Assembly (NCBI GenBank): GCA_965116885.1
Contig: OZ220741.1
Span: forward strand, 2,432,001-2,496,000
DNA length: 64,000 bases
Origin: Candidatus Latescibacterota bacterium
Lineage (GTDB): Bacteria > Latescibacterota > UBA2968
Direction of reading: 5' to 3'
Part shown: piece by piece, positions 4,932 through 60,870 of the stretch
Layout of the letters: each line of letters starts with the position of its first letter
Numbering within the stretch: position 1 is the stretch's first letter
Notes under the pieces: generated by a model
What the model saw: the letters and a program-made list of their open reading frames with translations, nothing else
Told to the model about the DNA's origin: nothing
Databases searched by the model: none
Program-made: the position numbers and the translations under genes

Positions 4932-6002
4932 TTGCCTACTATTGTTCTTATTGGCGGTGGTACCGCAGGGCATGTTACGCCCAATATTGCGCTGTTGCCC
5001 GCTTTGCGCGATGCTGGATACGATGTGCGTTATATCGGTACGCGGGATGGTATTGAGCAAGAACTGATCGCACGGGAGGGCGTTTCCTATTACGCTGTTC
5101 CCGCAGGCAAACTCCGCCGCTATCTGGATTGGCAAAATTTTACCGATCTGGCCCGCATCAAGTTTGGGTTTCTCAAGTCGCTGTTGCTTCTCGTTCGTAT
5201 CAGACCCGATATCATTTTTAGTAAGGGGGGATTTGTTACGCCGCCTATTATCTGGGCTGCGTGGTTGCTGGGTATTCCCGTGGTGTGTCACGAGTCAGAT
5301 CTCACGCCGGGGTTGGCCAATAAGCTTTCTCTTCCATTTGCAAAGCGCATTTGCTATGCTTTTGCTGAGACAGCTAAATATTTGCCCGGTGGAAAAGCGA
5401 TTCATACGGGTATCCCGGTTCGGACAGAGCTGGGAGATGGAGATGCCCAAAAAGGACGCGATTTTTGCGCTTTTATATCTGGGAAACCCGTTATTCTCGT
5501 TATGGGAGGGAGCCTGGGGTCGCGTGCGATTAATGAGGCGGTTCGCGCTGCGCTCCCCGATTTGCTTGCTGAGTACCAGATTTGCCATTTGTGCGGGCAG
5601 GGCAATCTCGATTCGGCTCTTGAACAGACCGAAGGCTACGCGCAGTTTGAATATGTCGCGGATGACTTGCCGCATCTTTTTGCGGCGGCCGATTTTGTTG
5701 TTTCTCGCGCAGGTGCTACCGCGCTTTTTGAATTTCTTTCGCTCCAGAAACCCGCGCTTTTGATTCCCCTTTCCCTGCAAGCCAGTCGCGGAGATCAGAT
5801 CGAGAATGCCAGGGCATTCCGAAATGCCGGTTATAGTCTCGTGCTTTCAGAAGAGGGGCTTACGCCGGATGTGCTTTGCAAAGCGATTCGCGATTTGTGC
5901 GATCAAAGCGATGCGCTGCGTCGATCTATGTCCGAGTGGCGCCAGCGCGACGCTGTTGCGGAAATTCTCTCAATCCTCGCCGATTGTCTGAATAAGAATT
6001 GA
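4932..6002 (+). CDS. murG: Undecaprenyl-PP-MurNAc-pentapeptide GlcNAc transferase MurG
   Basis: GGGTAGHV, KGGFV, HESD, GGSLGS, SRAGA, DQIENA motifs; probable TTG start at 4932 after AGGAG. Confidence 0.92.
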   Translation: MPTIVLIGGGTAGHVTPNIALLPALRDAGYDVRYIGTRDGIEQELIAREGVSYYAVPAGKLRRYLDWQNFTDLARIKFGFLKSLLLLVRIRPDIIFSKGGFVTPPIIWAAWLLGIPVVCHESDLTPGLANKLSLPFAKRICYAFAETAKYLPGGKAIHTGIPVRTELGDGDAQKGRDFCAFISGKPVILVMGGSLGSRAINEAVRAALPDLLAEYQICHLCGQGNLDSALEQTEGYAQFEYVADDLPHLFAAADFVVSRAGATALFEFLSLQKPALLIPLSLQASRGDQIENARAFRNAGYSLVLSEEGLTPDVLCKAIRDLCDQSDALRRSMSEWRQRDAVAEILSILADCLNKN

Positions 6003-6007
6003 GTTCT

Positions 6008-7978
6008 ATGGCACAAGAAAGACATCCATCTGTTGAACCCACCCGGTTTGTAAGAGAAGCCGTTACGCTGAAGTCCATTTTGGTGGGTATTGTGGTCATT
6101 CTGCTATCCGATGTCTATATCACCTGGGGCATGGTGCATCTGGCGTCTCGTATGAATAAGTCCTATCTGCCGATGGGGCTGTTTTTTGTGTATGTGGTTC
6201 TGGTGTTGGTAAATATCGCGTTTGACCGGGCAAAGAGCAGGTGGGCACTTTCGCAGGCTGAGTTGCAAGTTGCGCTCGGTATGGGGTTGATTGGGGCGTT
6301 TTTCCCATTTTTTGGTCTGGCGAGTTTTTTGCCCACGGTGATTGCGGCGCCTTTTTATCTGGATACGCCAGAGAATGGATGGCGCGAGCTTTTGCACGAG
6401 CATATTCCCAGATGGATTGTTTTGCACAATGAAGATGGGGCAGCTACGCTGTTTTACGAGGGTCTCGCGCCGCATCAGCCGATTCCGTGGGGTGCGTGGG
6501 TGGTGCCGCTTTTCTGGTGGGGGTCGTTAATTTTTGCCATTGGCTGGTTGACGTTGTGTATTATGGTAATTTTGCGGAAGCAGTGGGTGGAGAATGAGCG
6601 GTTGGAATATCCGCTGATGAATGTGAGTATTAAGATGGCTGCCGGGTCAGATGATGCGGAGGGGATTGCGCACATGGTTCGGCAGCGTGGGTTTAAGGTT
6701 GGTTGTTTTCTGGGTGCTATAGCTGTTTTGTGGAATATTGTGACGTTTTTTTATCCTTTGATACCGCGTTTGCCCACGACGCCAAATGCCGCCAGTTGGT
6801 TGCGCTGGATGGAGGGCGCGCCGACGTTCTGGGTGCAGATCAGTATTTATATTATCGGCTTTGCGTATTTTGCGCGGGTGGAGGCGCTGTTCAGTTTTTG
6901 GGTGTTTTTTGTTTTGACGGGTATTGAGATGTCCGTGTTTGACCGTCTCGGTGTGGGGTCTTCTGTTGGGCAAGGGGGATTGGAGGCGGTTCGGTCTCAG
7001 AGTTTTGGCGCGTTTGTGATGATTGTGCTGGTGAGTTTGTGGATGTCGCGGGGGCATTTGAAGGCGGTGTTTCGTAAGGCATTTAAGGGTGATGCCGAGG
7101 TCGATGATTCTCGGGAGGTGTTGTCTTATCGGACAGCGGTGTTTGGTCTGGGGATTGGGCTTCTTTTTGTGGGGGGATGGTTGCATTTGGCGGGTATGGA
7201 ATTGAAGGTGCTGGTGCTTTATATGTTTTTTGCTGTGGTAGCCTATATCGGCTTGTCGCGGATTGTGGCTGAGATGGGGTTGCCCTATGCAAATATTTCG
7301 GATACGGCACTGAATTTCGCGCCTATTTATATTTTGGGGTCGCGTGCAATTTCAGCACCTTCTATGGTGAGTCAGGGGTTTATTTATGCGCTGTTCGCCA
7401 CGACGCGCGGGTTTCTCGGTCCGCCTCTGGCGCAGACGCTGAAGTTGACGAGTGGGTTGAAGTTTCGAAGGAATCGCTTGATCGGTGCGATTGCTATTGC
7501 ATTGGTGTTGGGGTTTTTCGTATCCATCGGCGATACGGTTTATACTGCTTATCGGCACGGCGGATATAATCTGGGGGGGCTGACGAGGGTGGCGGGCGTT
7601 CGGAATAATTATCAAAGGGCCGTGACGTGGATCCGCAATCCCAAACCACCGGATTGGGATCGGCTCACGTTTGCCGGGTCTGGGATGGCGATTGTGTTGT
7701 TGTTGACTTTTTTGCGCTATAACTTTATCTGGTGGCCTTTGCCCGCTGTTGGTCTGGCACTGCAGGGTATGTATATGGCGCGTCGTCTGGTGTTTCCGGT
7801 TTTTATGGTGTGGGTCTATAAGTCGCTTATTCTGAAGTTTGGGGGCGTTGGGATGTACCGCAGGGGGCAGCCGTTTTTTATTGGTTTGATGGTGGGTTAT
7901 GCTTTTGCGGTGTTTTTCTCGACTTTGATCGATCATCTCTTTTTTTATGGGCACGGTCATGTGGTGCATGATTTTTGA
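6008..7978 (+). CDS. Large polytopic membrane protein, DUF6785/DUF6784 putative transporter family
   Basis: Many hydrophobic helices; 'RKQWVENERLEYP', 'SRIVAEMG', 'WWPL' segments typical of this family. Confidence 0.7.
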   Translation: MAQERHPSVEPTRFVREAVTLKSILVGIVVILLSDVYITWGMVHLASRMNKSYLPMGLFFVYVVLVLVNIAFDRAKSRWALSQAELQVALGMGLIGAFFPFFGLASFLPTVIAAPFYLDTPENGWRELLHEHIPRWIVLHNEDGAATLFYEGLAPHQPIPWGAWVVPLFWWGSLIFAIGWLTLCIMVILRKQWVENERLEYPLMNVSIKMAAGSDDAEGIAHMVRQRGFKVGCFLGAIAVLWNIVTFFYPLIPRLPTTPNAASWLRWMEGAPTFWVQISIYIIGFAYFARVEALFSFWVFFVLTGIEMSVFDRLGVGSSVGQGGLEAVRSQSFGAFVMIVLVSLWMSRGHLKAVFRKAFKGDAEVDDSREVLSYRTAVFGLGIGLLFVGGWLHLAGMELKVLVLYMFFAVVAYIGLSRIVAEMGLPYANISDTALNFAPIYILGSRAISAPSMVSQGFIYALFATTRGFLGPPLAQTLKLTSGLKFRRNRLIGAIAIALVLGFFVSIGDTVYTAYRHGGYNLGGLTRVAGVRNNYQRAVTWIRNPKPPDWDRLTFAGSGMAIVLLLTFLRYNFIWWPLPAVGLALQGMYMARRLVFPVFMVWVYKSLILKFGGVGMYRRGQPFFIGLMVGYAFAVFFSTLIDHLFFYGHGHVVHDF

Positions 7979-15373: not shown

Positions 15374-16285
15374 ATGCGTCGCTTCACGCGTACGCCCTAT
15401 TATAGCGGGCCGGATGACCCGGCTATTGGCGAGGTGCGAGGTACGCTTGCTCTGGGCGAAACCGTGGTTATTGAGACCATTGGTGGGGCTGATAATGATT
15501 TTGAGGCTGCTGGTGAGGTTCGTGCGGGGATGATTACTTCTGGAGAAAGTCACCGCCGATACGCCCGTCGTGGTGGTCCTTTTCGCATTGAGGGGATTGC
15601 GCCGGATGACTGGGTCGCTATTGAGATTATCGATATTGAGGTGGGGCCTTACGGTTTTTATCGCAACGGAGGGCCGAACTGGGGCAATTGGCGCTGCGTT
15701 GCGCCGGTGCGCGATGGGTTGATCCACTTTCCGCCGGATTTTGTGGTGCCGGTGCGGCCTATGGTTGGCGTGGTTCAGTTGGAACCGTGGGCTGCCCATT
15801 CTATTGATCACGGCGGTAATATGGATTTTAATGCGGTGCAGCCGGGTAGTACTGTGCATATTCGCGCCCAAAAGCCCGGGGGGTTGCTCTCTTTGGGCGA
15901 TGTCCATGCGCGGATGGGCGATGGCGAGTTGACAGGTGCTGGTGTGGAGATCGACGCGGCGGTGACTATAAGAGTGGATCGTTCGCCCGGGTTTCCCAAT
16001 AGCAGTCCGGTGGTGGAGACAACCAGAGTGGTAGAAGCCGCTGAGGAGTATCTGACCAGTGCTCGGGCGACTGAGTGGGGCGAGGCTCTCAGGCTGGCCT
16101 GGTTGGAGATGGTGGCTCTGATTATCGATCGCTACGATACGACGTACGAATACGCCAATATGATCGTGGGGACGATTGGCGATGCGCGGCCCGGCTTTGC
16201 CACGGGCTATATGGGTAGCTATGTCACATGTCAGATTGCAGTGACCAAAGAATTGCGGCGCACCGGGGTGCCGTACGAGGCGTAG
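15374..16285 (+). CDS. Acetamidase/formamidase family protein
   Basis: HGGNMD, SLGDVHARMGDGEL..GVE motifs; AAGGAG RBS. Confidence 0.85.
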   Translation: MRRFTRTPYYSGPDDPAIGEVRGTLALGETVVIETIGGADNDFEAAGEVRAGMITSGESHRRYARRGGPFRIEGIAPDDWVAIEIIDIEVGPYGFYRNGGPNWGNWRCVAPVRDGLIHFPPDFVVPVRPMVGVVQLEPWAAHSIDHGGNMDFNAVQPGSTVHIRAQKPGGLLSLGDVHARMGDGELTGAGVEIDAAVTIRVDRSPGFPNSSPVVETTRVVEAAEEYLTSARATEWGEALRLAWLEMVALIIDRYDTTYEYANMIVGTIGDARPGFATGYMGSYVTCQIAVTKELRRTGVPYEA

Positions 16286-16323
16286 GGGTTTTGAAGTTTA
16301 CAACATTCACGAAAGGATTTGCT

Positions 16324-17097
16324 ATGTATTTGTACGGGATTCGCAATGCGAGTTTGAATATGGATTGGGGAAAAGATGCTTTTGCCACAGCAGGGGATAT
16401 TGGGTTTGATGGGGTGGAGATTGTGCTGCGGGAGGAGGAGCGGTTGGATTGGCTTTTAAGTGCTGCGGGCCGGGAAGAGGTTGGGAGGTGGGTTGAGGAG
16501 ACGGGCGCGCAAGCGTGTTCAATAAGTTTTGCCCTGTTTCGAGAATACAAGGGGAATGAGGAAGATGAGGCTGTGCGCGATCGCGTGGTGGAGCTTGTGC
16601 AAAAGGCGATCCGCGCGTGTAAGGGGATGGGCGGTGTCGGTATTTTGCTTCCGTATTTTGATGCGGAGAATCGCGATATGTCGAGCGCGCATGCAGAATT
16701 GTTGATTGAAGACATGAAGCGATGCGCTCCTGTCGCCGAAGACGAGGGCATTAAGGTTGCTCTGGAGACGAGTTTTTCACCGGGATTGTTGAGGACGATT
16801 TGCGATGGCGTGGGGTCTGAGATGGTGGGGGTGTATCAAGATACGGCCAATGCGCTGCAATACGGGTACGATTCGGTCGATATGCTCGTTACGTTACCGG
16901 AACACACACAATTGATTCATATTAAAGATACGCGGCGTTCTGATCTGGGCGAGGGCGATGTGGATTTTCCCGCGTGTCGAGATGCGATTGCACAGATCGG
17001 TTATGAGGGGTGGCTGATTTTTGAAACGCCAGGAGGTGCAGATCCTGCGGCATCGGGTAAGAAGAATTTGGCGTTTGCAAAAGAGATGTTCGGGTAG
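16324..17097 (+). CDS. Sugar phosphate isomerase/epimerase (xylose isomerase-like TIM barrel)
   Basis: GFDGVE, ALET, DTAN, HIKD, GEGDVDF, GYEGWLIFE motifs. Confidence 0.85.
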   Translation: MYLYGIRNASLNMDWGKDAFATAGDIGFDGVEIVLREEERLDWLLSAAGREEVGRWVEETGAQACSISFALFREYKGNEEDEAVRDRVVELVQKAIRACKGMGGVGILLPYFDAENRDMSSAHAELLIEDMKRCAPVAEDEGIKVALETSFSPGLLRTICDGVGSEMVGVYQDTANALQYGYDSVDMLVTLPEHTQLIHIKDTRRSDLGEGDVDFPACRDAIAQIGYEGWLIFETPGGADPAASGKKNLAFAKEMFG

Positions 17098-17099
17098 GC

Positions 17100-17192
17100 T
17101 GGCAGAGGGAGGGGGACTCGAACCCCATGCGAAAATTCGCACGCGGGCTTGTGTTTTGCTGCCCGCGGCCCACCTTGGACCGTTCACCCCCT
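17100..17192 (-). ncRNA. tRNA-like RNA copy A (93 nt; 8/4 fold, long variable arm, 3' GCCA, 12-nt loop in place of the anticodon loop)
   Basis: Reverse complement: AGGGGGUG AAC GGUCCAAGGUGGGCC GCGGGC-AGCAAAACACAA-GCCCGC GUGCGAAUUUUCGCAU GGGG-UUCGAGU-CCCC CUCCCUCU G CCA. Confidence 0.85.
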
Positions 17193-17212
17193 GCATTGAT
17201 GCTGTTATTTTT

Positions 17213-17299
17213 TGGCAGAGGGTGAGGGACTCGAACCCTGTGCGGTTGCCCGCACCACCGACCAATGTCAGGCGGCCCACCACGAACCGTTCACCCCCT
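17213..17299 (-). ncRNA. tRNA-like RNA copy B (87 nt; 8/4 fold, long variable arm, 3' GCCA, bulged anticodon-position stem with 4-nt loop)
   Basis: Reverse complement: AGGGGGUG AAC GGUUCGUGGUGGGCC GCCUGAC-AUUG-GUCGGUG GUGCGG-GCAA-CCGCAC AGGG-UUCGAGU-CCCU CACCCUCU G CCA. Confidence 0.87.
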
Positions 17300-17323
17300 A
17301 CCTATTTTGACAAGTCTGTACGC

Positions 17324-18313
17324 TTAAAGGTTTCTCCCAACAGTACGTTCAGGGCGCAGTTCCCCCAGGGATTGTTCACCGGGTTGGATATATTCTACGG
17401 CTGGGCTTTCGATGCGCCCATAGGCATTCCACACTTTGAATCCGAGCAAAGAGAGAAGATCGGGCGATGCCTCGGCGAGGACGTCGGGAGCCGTGCCTAC
17501 GGTAAAATTTTCCTGTGGACGGAACTGGGGTCCGCAGAATGTGGTGAGTATGGCCCAGCGCAGTTGATCGCTTATATTGGCTCCTGTGCCGTGCCAGATG
17601 CGTCCGTCAAGGAATCCAACTGTGCCGGCTGGCCCTTCGAGGGCGACTGTTTCAGTGGTGTTGTCATCGGGATTGTCAGGACGGCGTCCCCATAGGTGAC
17701 TACCGGGTACGATGCGGGTGCCGCCGTTTTCTGCTGTGAAGTCGCCGATCATCCAGACCACGTTGATGACGACGCGGGGCCAGATGGATGCGGTATCGGA
17801 TTCGTCTGTTTGTTCGCGGGTGATAGAGCCTGCGGGTAAATGCGTTCGGTCAGCGCGCGTTGGCATGGGCATCCACCACTGGTCTGTGTGCAGGCGCATG
17901 GGAACGCCGCCGGGTTTGGCGATGTTGGCCGAATGGCTCGATAGCAGATAATCATTGCCCAGTGCGTGATCCACGATGTTGCGGACTCCTGAATGTAATA
18001 GCATGTCTTGAAATACCCGACCTTTGTTGATCAGCATCCACACGCGCTGGTTGACACCTCCTGCAGATTGTGTAAACGCCCCCGCGCGTACCTGCCCTTT
18101 TTTATTTCGAAAATCCCCCCAGTTTTGTTTTGCACCTCCGTCTTCAAATGCGAGCCCGCGTTGTTTTTCGGCTATGGCCTGTTCTTTTAGACGGGTTTTT
18201 ATTTTTGAGAGATCTTCCGCGCTGAGGGCGTTGGCAAGCAGGCCATAACCGTAGGTATCGAGTTGTGTTTTGACCTGTGTGAGGTCTTCGGTTGGTTGTG
18301 GAAGTTCAGACAT
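17324..18313 (-). CDS. Phytanoyl-CoA dioxygenase (PhyH) family 2OG-Fe(II) oxygenase
   Basis: HxD (LHTD), NGGTRIVPGSH, WHGTG..R motifs. Confidence 0.88.
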   Translation of the reverse strand: MSELPQPTEDLTQVKTQLDTYGYGLLANALSAEDLSKIKTRLKEQAIAEKQRGLAFEDGGAKQNWGDFRNKKGQVRAGAFTQSAGGVNQRVWMLINKGRVFQDMLLHSGVRNIVDHALGNDYLLSSHSANIAKPGGVPMRLHTDQWWMPMPTRADRTHLPAGSITREQTDESDTASIWPRVVINVVWMIGDFTAENGGTRIVPGSHLWGRRPDNPDDNTTETVALEGPAGTVGFLDGRIWHGTGANISDQLRWAILTTFCGPQFRPQENFTVGTAPDVLAEASPDLLSLLGFKVWNAYGRIESPAVEYIQPGEQSLGELRPERTVGRNL

Positions 18314-24089: not shown

Positions 24090-24509
24090 TTATAAGTCGA
24101 GTTTGTCTGCAAATGCCAGCATTTTTGCTTCAACCTCCTGGGCAATCGGTTGTAGTGTTTCCTGGTCGATCTCGATTTTCTGTATCCTTTCATCCACATT
24201 TGTCGTGAGACAAAAACGCAGGTTTTGTGTCAAATCGTGCATCGCGTGCTCAATGTGGTCTCGAACCGTTCCGGGAGGATACATCCACTGTCTTGCCCGG
24301 GTCTGTTTCAGGTTGATGTGGCAATGCCCTTTCCCGCCGTGTTTTTTTGCCTCGCCAAAGCAGTCCAGACGCAAAACTTCCTGATTGTAAGCATACACAG
24401 ATGCTGCGGGACCGTAACCGGCGCGGTCGTTTCGCCAATAGACTTCCAGTCGCACATCGTCTTGTATCGGATATGTAGTCCGATCCTGTCTGCCTGGTTG
24501 TGTATCCAT
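24090..24509 (-). CDS. Hypothetical protein (about 139 aa)
   Basis: ORF with AAGGA RBS before ATG 24509; 'LRLDCF...GHCH' motif. Confidence 0.6.
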   Translation of the reverse strand: MDTQPGRQDRTTYPIQDDVRLEVYWRNDRAGYGPAASVYAYNQEVLRLDCFGEAKKHGGKGHCHINLKQTRARQWMYPPGTVRDHIEHAMHDLTQNLRFCLTTNVDERIQKIEIDQETLQPIAQEVEAKMLAFADKLDL

Positions 24510-24608
24510 GACTTTTCCTTTCTGTTGTGGCGCGTTATGGCCTGTGAGCAGCTTGGTGAATGGCGTATTTCTCCAGCACAAACTAATTTTTGGACATGTC
24601 AGTATAAT

Positions 24609-25172
24609 TCAAGAAGTAATTGCCTGTTCCGATAGTTTGCCGACAAATTCATCGGACGGCAAAATTTCGACCTCATCAACAATTTGGCGTGATAAGACAC
24701 TTCTGAGGTTGCTGAGTAAATCAATTTTCAGATTATTAAAAAATATGGCATCCTGTGTCTCATTCATGCCGCTGACGACGAGCCAGAACTTGTACTTTTT
24801 TGTTCCCAGAAGATCTCTTGCGTCTTGGCATACCGCAGATAGACGACATAATACGAGCATTGATCCATAAGCTTTTAGTCGATTTTCCTGGCGGATGTAC
24901 CTATCGATAAATTGCTTTTGATCGGTGCTTTCGAGATAATGATATTCGTTTTGCAAATCCCTGTGCTGATCTATAAGCTTGGTTTCTTCGATCAAGATAA
25001 TAGTATCGTCCTGGCTGAGCATAAAATAATCACAGCAATTACAAGGACCTAAACCAACATCTTTTCGCATATCAGGTTGCGGTGCTTCGCCATCCATGCG
25101 ATATGCATGGTGGTCTTGAAGAGGTGTACCAGCGAGTTCAATCGGTTCCAGGAATTTTTCGAGGTCAATCAT
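24609..25172 (-). CDS. Hypothetical protein, possible PD-(D/E)xK-like nuclease fold; partner of the upstream ATPase
   Basis: ATGA overlap with ATPase; 'CCDYF..(x8)..ILIEETK' resembles a D...ExK motif; AT-richer sequence. Confidence 0.6.
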   Translation of the reverse strand: MIDLEKFLEPIELAGTPLQDHHAYRMDGEAPQPDMRKDVGLGPCNCCDYFMLSQDDTIILIEETKLIDQHRDLQNEYHYLESTDQKQFIDRYIRQENRLKAYGSMLVLCRLSAVCQDARDLLGTKKYKFWLVVSGMNETQDAIFFNNLKIDLLSNLRSVLSRQIVDEVEILPSDEFVGKLSEQAITS

Positions 25173-26551
25173 ATCCCCTCGATGTACAGATCGGAGAACG
25201 GCTTGGTCAATTCGTGCATAATCTTTCCCATCTTCGTTTCAAAGTCCTCTTCGGTATTACTGTTCTTTACTGGAAATTGGTTGAGCGCAATGAGTTGCTC
25301 ATCGTCCGGGTTCTTCTTTACATGGACTTCCAGCCATTTGAGGATATCTACGCTGTGTGTGGCAATTACTACATTTACACCCTGACGGGACAATTCAAAG
25401 AGGCTTTCTGCCATGATGACTTGCCAGGCCGGATGCAAGTGTGCTTCTGGCTCGTCAATAAAGAGAAATGTCCCTTTATCCAGTACCTTGCGCTCAATCA
25501 GCAATGCCAGGATGCCGAGGTTGGCGATTCCCATAGCTGTGACAGGCAATGAGAAATTGCGACCATTTTCTTGGAAATACAAATTGCCTGTTTCAGAAAT
25601 TGCAATCTTTCCGTCCATGACACTTTTGCCGGTCAACTTTGCATATACATCCGGAAAGGCCATGTCTCCGGTGTATTCATACTTCAATGCTCCGACAAGA
25701 TCATAGAAATATCCCGGAACGCCGCTGAGTCGTTCTCTATCTCCGAAATGTACAGGGTGATCCCGTGCGTCTTCCAACACAGTTTTCAATTTCCAGTAAA
25801 TAGGTGATTCCAGATAGATTACTCTGGAGTATTGCTGCAAGTGCTCTATCAAGGAAATATGTGTCAGGCCTGCAAATCCCTCGTCCGATAGTTCGAATAA
25901 TCCAAACTCCCCAACTTCGACTTTTGATGGTGTTCCTTCTTCCCTTATGAGAGCAGAAATATTTGGCACTTGAAAGTTCTGAATTAAATTTTGTTCGCTT
26001 TGGTACCATATACTGGTTTCAATAAAATTTTCCGTATCCATGTGGCTAAGTTTCTCTTTTAACGCAGCCAATGAATTCATCAGGCTCTCCAAGTAGTATC
26101 TCTGTCCCCTTGCCATTTTTTTTTCGGGAAACTGTGGGATATCGGAGGCTATTTGCTCTATTTTTTTTATGTAGCTGATAAGCTCGGGAATAATTTCTTC
26201 TGAGAGAATTTCCTCATTATACAACGTTTCAATGGAAGCCGCCTTAATGAGAGCTTTTAATTTTTCAGCCTCATTTTTCATTCTAGATAACCGGGATATT
26301 GTAGCTTTATCAGAACGTGTCTCTCGATCTGGCCTCGTCATTATCATCAAGTCGCGATAAACAGGCCCAACCAGATTGTTTAGATGTGTCTCGACATGGT
26401 TTGCGTTCATTGCGTTAAAAAGTGAATACAGGAGTTTTGAAACAAAGCTCTTACCCGTATTATTTGGTCCTGCAAATACAGTGAACTGGCCGATGCTGAC
26501 TTCCGCATCTTCGAGTTTGCCGATGTTTTTGATTTTTACTTTGAAAGCCAT
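25169..26551 (-). CDS. Soluble ABC-type ATPase (AAA_15/AAA_21 family)
   Basis: KIKNIGKL, Walker A GPNNTGKS, degenerate signature TAMG, Walker B/D-loop FIDEPEAHLHP, H-loop IATHS. Confidence 0.9.
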   Translation of the reverse strand: MAFKVKIKNIGKLEDAEVSIGQFTVFAGPNNTGKSFVSKLLYSLFNAMNANHVETHLNNLVGPVYRDLMIMTRPDRETRSDKATISRLSRMKNEAEKLKALIKAASIETLYNEEILSEEIIPELISYIKKIEQIASDIPQFPEKKMARGQRYYLESLMNSLAALKEKLSHMDTENFIETSIWYQSEQNLIQNFQVPNISALIREEGTPSKVEVGEFGLFELSDEGFAGLTHISLIEHLQQYSRVIYLESPIYWKLKTVLEDARDHPVHFGDRERLSGVPGYFYDLVGALKYEYTGDMAFPDVYAKLTGKSVMDGKIAISETGNLYFQENGRNFSLPVTAMGIANLGILALLIERKVLDKGTFLFIDEPEAHLHPAWQVIMAESLFELSRQGVNVVIATHSVDILKWLEVHVKKNPDDEQLIALNQFPVKNSNTEEDFETKMGKIMHELTKPFSDLYIEGI

Positions 26552-32372: not shown

Positions 32373-33542
32373 CTAAAACTTGAATATTTTGCGTTCGGTT
32401 TGTTCAAGGGTTTGTTCGATGAGGGGGGCGAGGTCGAGCGTGGATTCGATTTCGCGGACTTTTTCCAAATTGGCGCGCGTTTCGGGGTGTTTGGGGACAA
32501 AGACAGAACAACAATCTTCGTAGGGTTCAATGGAGATTTGATATGTGCCAATGCGCCGGGCCTCGTTGATGATTTCTTCTTTGTTGTCACCGGCTAATGG
32601 TCGCAAGATAGGCAGCGGGATAACATCTTCGATGACGCGCATGTTCGACAGGGTTTGCGAGGCGACCTGTCCGACGTTTTCGCCTGTGACGAGTGCCTGG
32701 GCATTGACTTTTTGGGCTATGGCTTCTGCAATGAGAAGCATGGCGCGGCGGTAGAGAATGACGCGGTAGCTCGCAGGTGCTCGCATCATTATATGGCGTT
32801 GAATTTCGACGAATGGCACCAGGTACAGGTCCGACACGTATTGATGCCGGGTGAGGAGTTGCACGAGGTCTTCGGTGTTGCGCTGGGAGTTGCGATTGGT
32901 ATAGGGCTGGCTGTGAAAATGCACATAAGTCAATTTGACGCCGCGTTTCATAATTTTGTAAGAAGCTACGGGTGAGTCAATGCCCGAGGAGATGAGGCTT
33001 ACTGCGCGTTCATTGGATCCGACGGGCAAACCCCCTGGTGCCGAAATTTTTTCGGCGTAGATAAATATGCGTTGTGGGGCAATTTCAATAAAGCAGGTGA
33101 GGTCTGGATTGTCCATCAGGACGCGGGCACCCGACAGGGTTTGAATATGCTTGCCCACATCCCGATTGATCTGGTCCGAATTGAGGGGAAAGGTTTTGTC
33201 GCCGCGTCTGGTGACAATTTTGAAGGATTGAAAGTCGGTTTTTTGTGCAAGTGCCCAGGCTGTTTCTCGAATGGCTTCGATATTGCGTTTGGCGACCACT
33301 GCTTCGGAAAAGTTGGCGATGCCAAAGACTGTTGAGAGTCGTTCTCGGATTACATCTATCGGCGATTCTGAGGTGAGTGCGAGCATCATGCGGCCCGATA
33401 GACGTTCGAGCTTTCCGCAGGGTACGTCTTTGAGTGCGCGGTTGATGTTGGTCATCAGACGCCGTTCAAATTTGCCCCGATTTTTGCCTTTGAGGCCAAT
33501 TTCGTGATAGTGTATGAGTATGAAGCGGTCGTTGGTCGTCAT
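32373..33542 (-). CDS. thiI: tRNA 4-thiouridine synthase ThiI
   Basis: YHEIGLKGKNR, THUMP region, PP-loop SSGIDS, TGENVGQVASQT, EDCC. Confidence 0.93.
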   Translation of the reverse strand: MTTNDRFILIHYHEIGLKGKNRGKFERRLMTNINRALKDVPCGKLERLSGRMMLALTSESPIDVIRERLSTVFGIANFSEAVVAKRNIEAIRETAWALAQKTDFQSFKIVTRRGDKTFPLNSDQINRDVGKHIQTLSGARVLMDNPDLTCFIEIAPQRIFIYAEKISAPGGLPVGSNERAVSLISSGIDSPVASYKIMKRGVKLTYVHFHSQPYTNRNSQRNTEDLVQLLTRHQYVSDLYLVPFVEIQRHIMMRAPASYRVILYRRAMLLIAEAIAQKVNAQALVTGENVGQVASQTLSNMRVIEDVIPLPILRPLAGDNKEEIINEARRIGTYQISIEPYEDCCSVFVPKHPETRANLEKVREIESTLDLAPLIEQTLEQTERKIFKF

Positions 33543-50241: not shown

Positions 50242-50586
50242 CTAATTGTTGACCGCTACACGTTGTCGCTGGCGTTTTTTTTCTGAGCGCTGGCGTTTTT
50301 TTTCAAGGCGTTTTTCGATTGAAGATCGGTTGGGGCGGGTTTTAATACGCGGTTTGCGCTTTTTGTTGCGCTCGTTCAGGCGGTTTTGTAAACGCTCGAG
50401 GGCGAGTTGTTTGTTGCGGTGTTGTGAGCGGTGTTCTGTGGCGATGGCAGTAATACCTGTGGGTATGTGGATTGCGCGCACGGCGGTTTCAACTTTGTTG
50501 CGATGTTGGCCGCCGGGGCCAGACCCGCGCATGGTTTGAAATCGAACATCCTTCAGGAGCGCGTTGTTGTCGGTGTTTTTAGACAT
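50242..50586 (-). CDS. GGQ-domain peptidyl-tRNA hydrolase / ribosome rescue factor (ArfB-like)
   Basis: SGPGGQHRNK..TAVR, RSQ..NK..A, basic tail RKPRIKTRP.RSS.EKRL..K. Confidence 0.85.
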   Translation of the reverse strand: MSKNTDNNALLKDVRFQTMRGSGPGGQHRNKVETAVRAIHIPTGITAIATEHRSQHRNKQLALERLQNRLNERNKKRKPRIKTRPNRSSIEKRLEKKRQRSEKKRQRQRVAVNN

Positions 50587-60362: not shown

Positions 60363-60369
60363 ATATGTG

Positions 60370-60870
60370 ATGAATTTGCTTTATAAACCCGATGGATATC
60401 CCATTTATGCCGTTGTGGAAAATGTTCGTTCACTGTTTAATGTGGGCGCGATTTTTCGCTCGGCAGATGGGGTTAATGCATCGGGGGTTTATTTAACGGG
60501 ATTTACAGGATGTCCCCCGCGCAAGGAGATCAGTCGCGTGGCGTTGGGCGCAGAAGAGACGGTGCCCTGGTATTATGAACGGGATACGGCAAAGCTGATC
60601 GGCGATTTGCGCTCGCAAGGTGTACAGGTGGTTGCATTAGAGCAAACGCCAGATAGTGTCGATTTTCGAACTTTTTGCTATCGCTGGCCGGTGGCTGTGG
60701 TCTTGGGCCATGAAGTGACGGGTGTGCGTCCTGAGACACTGTGTTTGTGCGATAGCGTTGTTCACATTCCGATGTTGGGAACAAAAGTGTCTCTAAATGT
60801 GTCTGTAGCTACAGGGGTTATGCTTTATGAATTGTTGTCCGTTTTTGAGAGACAACGAGATAGGGTGTGA
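60370..60870 (+). CDS. SpoU/TrmH family RNA methyltransferase
   Basis: ENVRS.FNVGAIFRSAD, LGHEVTGV, IPMLG...SLNVSVA. Confidence 0.9.
   Translation: MNLLYKPDGYPIYAVVENVRSLFNVGAIFRSADGVNASGVYLTGFTGCPPRKEISRVALGAEETVPWYYERDTAKLIGDLRSQGVQVVALEQTPDSVDFRTFCYRWPVAVVLGHEVTGVRPETLCLCDSVVHIPMLGTKVSLNVSVATGVMLYELLSVFERQRDRV

Follow-up and report, generated by a model that had tools for sequence, protein, structure and literature searches.

A small tandem array of two tRNA-like RNAs is present on a Latescibacterota chromosome. We consider it probable that these RNAs belong to the known allo-tRNA family as a conserved variant that does not decode, in a phylum new to that family, and that they would probably undergo tRNA-like maturation, might be aminoacylated and would have their role outside decoding. 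As seen by direct reading and in the pair table of their folds, the two units exactly fill positions 17100-17299 of the 64,000-nt stretch of DNA that was analysed (hereafter the window), in tandem on the minus strand. The units and their immediate neighbourhood are as follows:

17213..17299, minus strand: copy B, allo-tRNA-like RNA of 87 nt including CCA (cloverleaf fold, tRNA-Sec model match)
17100..17192, minus strand: copy A, allo-tRNA-like RNA of 93 nt including CCA (cloverleaf fold, tRNA-Sec model match)
17193..17212, minus strand: A-rich spacer of 20 nt between copies B and A (direct reading, alignment)
17300..17323, minus strand: leader of 24 nt from the PhyH stop codon (17326-17324) to copy B (three-genome alignment)
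17324..18313, minus strand: PhyH-family dioxygenase gene, upstream of the array and on the same strand (PF05721, E 4.2e-22)
16228..17097, plus strand: gene for a xylose-isomerase-like TIM-barrel protein, convergent (PF01261, E 2.1e-37)

Direct repeats spaced 107 and 113 nt apart identify the units of the array as tandem duplicates, and the repeated pieces are whole units 20 nt apart rather than partial 3′ ends around an island. Since the 20-nt A-rich spacer is also found between the units of a related genome (L051, see below), the duplicated unit comprises the spacer together with the RNA.

For the minus strand of both copies, the MFE and centroid folds are cloverleaves in which the extra arm is long, and MFE and centroid folding of the plus strand of both units gave no cloverleaf. 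The thermodynamic z-scores of the two units are modest to weak (-1.48 and -1.94). Copy B has an acceptor stem of 9 bp and a T stem of 3 bp, or equally 8 and 4 bp via an alternative A:U pairing, and copy A has an acceptor stem of 8 bp with a U7.U mismatch and a T stem of 4 bp. Acceptor pairs 1-3 are A1:U, G2:C and G3:U in both copies, and 4 of the 29 pairs of copy B are wobble pairs. The following elements were read from the pair table:

17297 and 17219, minus strand: copy B, G3 and the U with which it pairs; G73 at 17216; CCA at 17215-17213
17190 and 17106, minus strand: copy A, G3 and the U with which it pairs; G73 at 17103; CCA at 17102-17100
17289-17273, minus strand: copy B, D arm, 6 bp, loop GUGGU
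17182-17166, minus strand: copy A, D arm, 6-bp stem
17271-17258, minus strand: copy B, anticodon arm, 5 bp, loop AUUG (4 nt)
17165-17144, minus strand: copy A, anticodon arm, 12-nt loop AGCAAAACACAA (pair table and MFE fold); stem of 5 bp in the pair table and 6 bp in the MFE fold
17255-17240, minus strand: copy B, variable arm, 6 bp, loop GCAA (4 nt)
17142-17127, minus strand: copy A, variable arm, 6 bp, loop AUUU (4 nt)
17238-17226, minus strand: copy B, T arm, loop UUCGAGU
17126-17112, minus strand: copy A, T arm, loop UUCGAGU

The tRNA chassis is complete, with an 8/4 or 9/3 stack, a canonical T loop, GG in the D loop of both copies, a long variable arm, G73 and an encoded CCA. The pair table bears out an earlier note on this DNA, which had described G3:U70, a G discriminator and a long variable arm in both copies, and the broken anticodon that it also reported is seen in both, the loop measuring 4 nt in copy B and 12 nt in copy A. 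Neither copy has a 7-nt anticodon loop. A loop of 4 nt is unable to present an anticodon and one of 12 nt is far beyond the known functional loop sizes; without a 7-nt loop, the two copies therefore probably cannot serve as codon adaptors.

Relatives were sought by scanning genome contigs for a D-arm plus T-arm pattern in which positions 3 and 70 were left free, and at least 120 stretches matched. Among the matches listed, nearly all are, by inspection, ordinary tRNAs or chance, many of them with Lys-type anticodon loops, and the only true relatives are those in L051, a Candidatus Latescibacterota genome, and L054, a chromosome of uncultured Latescibacteria. In blastn, synteny of both with the window was seen between 13.5 and 22.3 kb, and the five flanking genes are 92.6-93.4% identical overall and 83.8-85.2% identical at third codon positions. 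The same intergenic site carries a different number of units in each genome:

L054:4987-5073: one unit, B type
Window 17100-17299, minus strand: two units, in the order B-A
L051:4880-5195: three units, in the order X-A-B

The additional unit of L051 (L051_X) is of A type in its anticodon and variable arms and of B type at its 3′ end, has A3:U70 and carries UCA in place of CCA, and its D arm consists of a canonical-looking 4-bp stem with a 10-nt loop. This mosaic makeup points to recombination within the array; taken together with copy number and order, it suggests unequal crossing-over or gene conversion inside the array. The variation in copy number, the oddities of L051_X and the U.U mismatch of type A look like turnover or decay. 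A blastn search of a phage collection returned three records, with T-arm matches of 31-34 nt only, and a blastn search of a plasmid collection returned no match.

ARAGORN reported neither tRNA nor tmRNA in the 64-kb window and rejected all six copies from the three genomes, and no Rfam family matched the 64-kb window at its gathering score. With a relaxed Rfam threshold, only two matches were obtained in the 64 kb, and these are copies B (32.3 bits) and A (31.0 bits), both matched by the tRNA-Sec model (RF01852, gathering score 47). The tRNA likeness of both units is far above chance. Across the three genomes, sub-threshold tRNA-Sec scores of 29.7-33.2 bits were found for five of the six copies, and L051_X gave no match to this model at E<=1. 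A dedicated model (R1), built from the three B-type copies, scores copy B at 114.1 bits and copy A at 63.4 bits and, with filters off, recovered exactly the six known units from 84 kb. Over 98 of the other 118 loci (the R1 search covered those outside L101-L120, and blastn took in all 120 loci) R1 gave only weak matches of at most 28 bits, which were taken, uninspected, as ordinary tRNAs or chance. One chance match of the contig scan, a 72-nt CCA-ended tRNA-like stretch in Candidatus Saccharibacteria (L026:5004-5075; 21.8 bits with R1), has an apparently atypical D region and is unrelated to the array.

Allo-tRNAs are tRNA-Sec-like RNAs of 8/4 or 9/3 type with a 12-bp acceptor branch (Mukai et al. 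2017, Nucleic Acids Res, PMC5389517), and were first found among false-positive tRNA-Sec matches (PMC5389517). A total of 12 bp in the acceptor and T stems (9/3 or 8/4) is the hallmark of this family, and by this architecture, with which the long D stem, the long variable arm and G73 agree, the present RNAs are placed in it. In the supplementary table of that report, which was compared by eye and by motif and prefix counts only, allo-tRNA(GCG) of row 315 has 31 of 33 acceptor and T-arm bases in common with copy B (8 of 9 in the 5′ acceptor strand and 23 of 24 in the T arm and 3′ acceptor strand, all by eye), the sole difference in the 5′ acceptor strand being G3 against A3. The D-arm motif GGTGGGCCG and the 5′ end AGGGGGTG were not found in the sequence table of PMC5389517. 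It is hardly credible that the RNAs are working adaptors which decode via non-standard anticodon loops: the chassis is otherwise intact and allo-tRNAs are reported to be highly active in E. coli translation (PMC5389517), but the sizes of both loops and the rejection of every copy by ARAGORN count against such a function. The RNAs are family members by chassis and are not functional adaptors.

Whether the array is maintained was judged from these six copies, which come from three closely related genomes that are approximately 93% identical in the flanking genes; at the third codon positions of the five flanking genes the identity to the window is 0.852 for L051 and 0.838 for L054. Relative to this third-codon rate, copy B of the window differs from its counterpart in L054 at only 1 of 87 positions (P=3.7e-6) and copy A from its counterpart in L051 at 2 of 93 (P=5e-5), and between the B copies of the window and L051 there are 7 differences in 87 positions (P=0.045). 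Each of these seven keeps a helix, and they comprise the changes U:G to C:G, G:C to G:U and U:A to U:G as well as a rearrangement of the D arm into a 6-bp stem with a tetraloop. When the six units are aligned, 97.1% of 171 cells pair, compared with 45-53% with slid partners, both sides have changed in 7 of 29 pairs (three of them among the anticodon stem's five pairs), and the covariation score is 0.292, compared with 0.133 in shuffles and reached by none of 500 shuffles, counts that are supportive rather than proof and are biased upward, as they were obtained from a model-fitted alignment of only six sequences, which are related.

The anticodon stem pairs in 100% of cells over the six units, the AUUG loop is the same in each of the three copies of B type, and among the three A and X units a single base of the 12-nt loop varies. 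Types A and B have their first 14 nt and most of the T and acceptor end in common and differ in the anticodon arm and in the variable arm, the latter with one compensatory pair (G:C to A:U) and different loops. A common chassis thus carries these two arms in two versions, each of them conserved. The earlier note took the anticodon arm to be the one part free to drift, which does not agree with these data, as the anticodon arms are as conserved between genomes as the remainder and the variable arm, too, differs between A and B.

The low substitution rate and the pair and covariation counts argue against neutral decay, and across the three related genomes purifying selection acts on the sequence as well as on the cloverleaf. 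They bear on the view that the units are decaying pseudogenes of once-functional allo-tRNAs, with the odd loops as lesions and the array as junk kept by chance. Several features would suit such decay, including loops of 4 and 12 nt that are incompatible with decoding, the U.U mismatch of type A, the presence of one, two or three copies in three close genomes, the loss of CCA and of the long D stem in L051_X, and the pseudogenes and inactive forms of allo-tRNAs that have been reported (PMC5389517). However, pseudogenes would not be expected to change far less between orthologous copies than the third codon positions of their neighbours do, to confine all seven differences between the B copies to changes that preserve helices, to retain fully paired anticodon stems with three compensatory pairs, or to keep both loop types from one genome to another, and we regard decay as quite unlikely.

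The array lies 24 nt after the PhyH gene, the final gene of a minus-strand cluster that encodes a periplasmic binding protein, sCache, MFS and PhyH proteins, and 2 nt separate the CCA end of copy A from the stop codon of the convergent xylose-isomerase-like gene. When 11 and 49 window ORFs were scanned with Pfam, ordinary chromosomal genes were seen, and among these hits no toxin-antitoxin, transposase, integrase or TROVE/Ro60 domain was found near the RNAs. Neither a two-hexamer sigma-70 promoter nor an intrinsic terminator was found in 16800-17600. Just upstream of copy B, the 12-nt element TTGTCAAAATAG (17313-17302, minus strand) is invariant in all three genomes, and the 10 nt that precede it vary among them. 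This element could be an extended -10 promoter (TGn plus CAAAAT), with transcription starting at or near position 1 of the RNA.

These observations bear on a further alternative, in which the units are not free RNAs but cis-acting tRNA-like elements of the PhyH operon transcript that are cut by RNase P and 3′ nucleases and thereby define or stabilise mRNA ends between convergent operons. The short distance from the PhyH stop codon to the first unit, the occupation of the whole gap between the convergent genes by the array, the missing two-hexamer promoter and terminator in 16800-17600 and the identical position in all three genomes are compatible with this proposal. However, a processing signal has no need of G73, an encoded CCA, a long variable arm or conserved loops, a single unit is enough in L054, and TTGTCAAAATAG might serve as the array's own promoter. 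In addition, tRNA genes often sit between convergent operons, and the position of the array is therefore uninformative in this respect. We regard a cis-acting role as unlikely, though somewhat less so than decay, and retain the reading of the units as free, non-decoding allo-tRNAs.

Two other readings of the locus were rejected. Three ORFs (16894-17283 and 16922-17173 on the minus strand, 17021-17695 on the plus strand) overlap the array, and a coding function for it was dismissed because they have no Pfam match and because the changes in copy number would break them. The complement of the 12-nt loop, considered as a possible target sequence, occurs five times in the window with up to one mismatch (2.78 expected; 18 of 100 shuffles reach five), one of the five being the loop itself and none lying on a sensible strand.

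Several genes elsewhere in the window deserve mention in their own right. The ORF at 24090-26551 (minus strand) has AAA_15/AAA_21 ATPase domains, whose family takes in AbiEii-type proteins. Two small ORFs with no Pfam match come after it, and the region, which lies approximately 7 kb away from the RNAs, may represent a module of defence or toxin-antitoxin-like type. A 114-aa protein encoded at 50242-50586 (minus strand) has an RF-1 domain only and resembles ArfB-type peptidyl-tRNA hydrolase; its gene adjoins that of an S1-domain protein. Further tRNA- or rRNA-related genes are those for ThiI (32373-33542) and a SpoU methylase (60367-60870). A large DUF6785/DUF6784 protein is encoded at 5999-7978 (plus strand), immediately following a MurG-like glycosyltransferase gene.

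The features of the acceptor end allow the question of aminoacylation to be considered. A single inherited event accounts for the G:U that both copies, being tandem duplicates, have at pair 3, and its sharing is by itself statistically unremarkable. The earlier note had tied its proposal of charging with Ala or Ser to the conservation of G3:U70 among homologs, which holds for five of the six copies in the three close genomes but does not extend to L051_X, where the pair is A3:U70, and is not family-wide. In the supplement of PMC5389517, position 3 is A in 577 entries (prefixes GGAG, GGAA and AGAG) and G in 143 (GGGG, GGGA and AGGG), counts that cover all sheets including selC*-type and polycistronic tRNAs, are restricted to these six prefixes and take no account of the partner base; all six entries with AGGG are tRNA-Cys of the selC* type. 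G3 opposite T does occur in two 9/3 entries of the published table, at row 638 and row 647, of which one has G73 and the other A73. From these comparisons, G3:U70 is a lineage feature, one transition from the A3:U70 usual in the family, and it is neither family-wide nor demonstrably selected.

Experimental precedent exists within the family, in that allo-tRNAs with G3:U70 were reported to insert Ala in E. coli when used as amber suppressors, and one with G73 also to insert Ser (PMC5389517), these insertion tests being based on intact 7-nt loops with a CUA anticodon (PMC5389517). In a later report, one of the two natural G3:U70 species functioned chiefly as tRNA-Ala (PMC7590224). The premise of the earlier note that AlaRS and SerRS identity is independent of the anticodon finds support in a review (PMC9976931), which gives the bacterial Ala identity set as A73, G2-C71, G3.U70, G4-C69 and G20, and names the variable arm and G73 for Ser, adding that most bacterial tRNA-Ser conserve the pairs G1-C72 and G2-C71 (PMC9976931). 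In the RNAs described here, the Ala set is represented by G3.U70 in five of the six copies and by G2-C71 and G4-C69 in all six, A73 is replaced by G73 in all six, and G20 is unassignable; of the Ser set, the variable arm, G73 and G2-C71 are present in all six copies, and G1-C72 is replaced by A1-U72 in all six. G73 in place of A73 and A1:U72 in place of G1:C72 may make both the Ala and the Ser identity weaker. The elements that are present, together with the family precedent, make charging of copies A and B by SerRS, and perhaps by AlaRS, plausible.

The array transcripts would be matured like tRNAs, with RNase P acting at the 5′ end and 3′ trimming proceeding to the encoded CCA. Their acceptor end would be a plausible substrate for SerRS through the variable arm and G73 and for AlaRS through G3:U70, and in this it matches the published G3:U70/G73 allo-tRNA. 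Lacking an anticodon loop, the RNAs would have to act outside decoding in either the charged or the uncharged state, and candidate roles are those of an amino-acid donor, a regulator that binds a synthetase or another factor, or a decoy. The discoverers of allo-tRNAs suggested a suppressor or regulatory role in nature (Mukai et al. 2017, PMC5389517). Among the Pfam hits of the window ORFs, no Fem, MprF, CDPS or PEARL-type domain was found, and the co-occurrence with tRNA-dependent transferases that the earlier note had envisaged is thus not seen there.

A more far-reaching version of the non-decoding reading, which we put forward tentatively and hold to be rather doubtful, is that Latescibacterota keep under selection a few anticodon-less allo-tRNA chassis that are CCA-matured and charged with Ser, Ala or both, and that bear, where the tips of the anticodon and variable arms would be, one of two separately conserved specificity modules (AUUG/GCAA, and the 12-nt A/C-rich loop with AUUN). 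Such RNAs would be devoted to carrying amino acids outside the ribosome or to regulation through binding to a synthetase or elongation factor, and, if this were true, they would constitute a free-standing bacterial counterpart of the tRNA-like domain of tmRNA. More generally, conserved chromosomal copies that do not decode and yet possess every processing and charging feature are evidence that some or all of the allo-tRNA family works outside translation. The array also provides, for the study of charging and partner binding, two defined RNAs for which both an A3:U70 and a G3:U70 form occur naturally, and it extends the allo-tRNA family to Latescibacterota, a phylum that the original report does not name. 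In the literature on allo-tRNAs, tRNA-like RNAs and Latescibacteria tRNAs, we found no title describing these RNAs.

Other tRNA mimics offer a further point of comparison. The units might in principle be a tmRNA tRNA-like domain, a module of a bacterial Y RNA (YrlA) or duplicated attachment sites of an integrating element, since tmRNA has G3:U70, is charged with Ala and is tRNA-like without an anticodon (PMC3985003), and bacterial Y RNAs mimic tRNA (PMC4201824). These identifications are very unlikely and largely refuted: ARAGORN found no tmRNA, no Rfam family other than tRNA-Sec matches the units, the Pfam hits of the window ORFs include no TROVE/Ro60, integrase or transposase domain, and the repeats are whole units rather than partial 3′ ends flanking an island. 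As regards tmRNA itself, the likeness lies in an acceptor/T domain with G3:U70 and without an anticodon, that of tmRNA being charged by AlaRS (PMC3985003), whereas the RNAs described here have full D, anticodon and variable arms and no mRNA-like tag region. The tRNA-Other of Bacillus cereus is likewise a chromosomal tRNA-like RNA that is maybe charged and is not a normal adaptor (PMC5389517), but it has an unrelated architecture and a different synthetase, on which grounds, and not by sequence comparison, it is set apart. The tRNA-Sec model (RF01852) is the best Rfam match, and tRNA-Sec resembles the array in its long D stem and variable arm, in G73 and in the SerRS-type identity, which for the array is putative; however, its acceptor branch has 13 bp (8/5) and its anticodon is UCA, whereas the RNAs of the array have 12 bp and no UCA loop, and score below the gathering threshold.

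The closest known relatives are the allo-tRNAs, although several differences set the array apart from them. Active allo-tRNA adaptors possess a 7-nt loop and a long anticodon stem, whereas the loops here have 4 nt in three copies and 12 nt in the other three. In place of the D-arm tetraloop of allo-tRNAs, the D loop has 5 nt in four copies and 10 nt in L051_X, with 4 nt in L051_B. A1:U72 occurs together with G3 in the present RNAs, and a toxin-antitoxin or transposon gene beside them was not found among the Pfam hits of the window ORFs. The hosts named in PMC5389517 are Clostridia, Proteobacteria and Acidobacteria, and the present host belongs to Latescibacterota. Departures from the regular form are themselves on record in the family, as inactive, irregular and polycistronic forms and pseudogenes have been reported (PMC5389517), and in E. 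coli no suppression was obtained from the six irregularly structured allo-tRNA(UAU) variants that its authors tried (PMC5389517). The likenesses, on the other hand, extend over most of the chassis: a 12-bp acceptor branch in all six copies (9/3 in the B type and L051_X, 8/4 in the A type), a variable arm with a 6-bp stem and a 4-nt loop as well as G73 in all six, a long D stem (6 bp) in five of the six, and detection as sub-threshold tRNA-Sec matches, again in five of the six copies.
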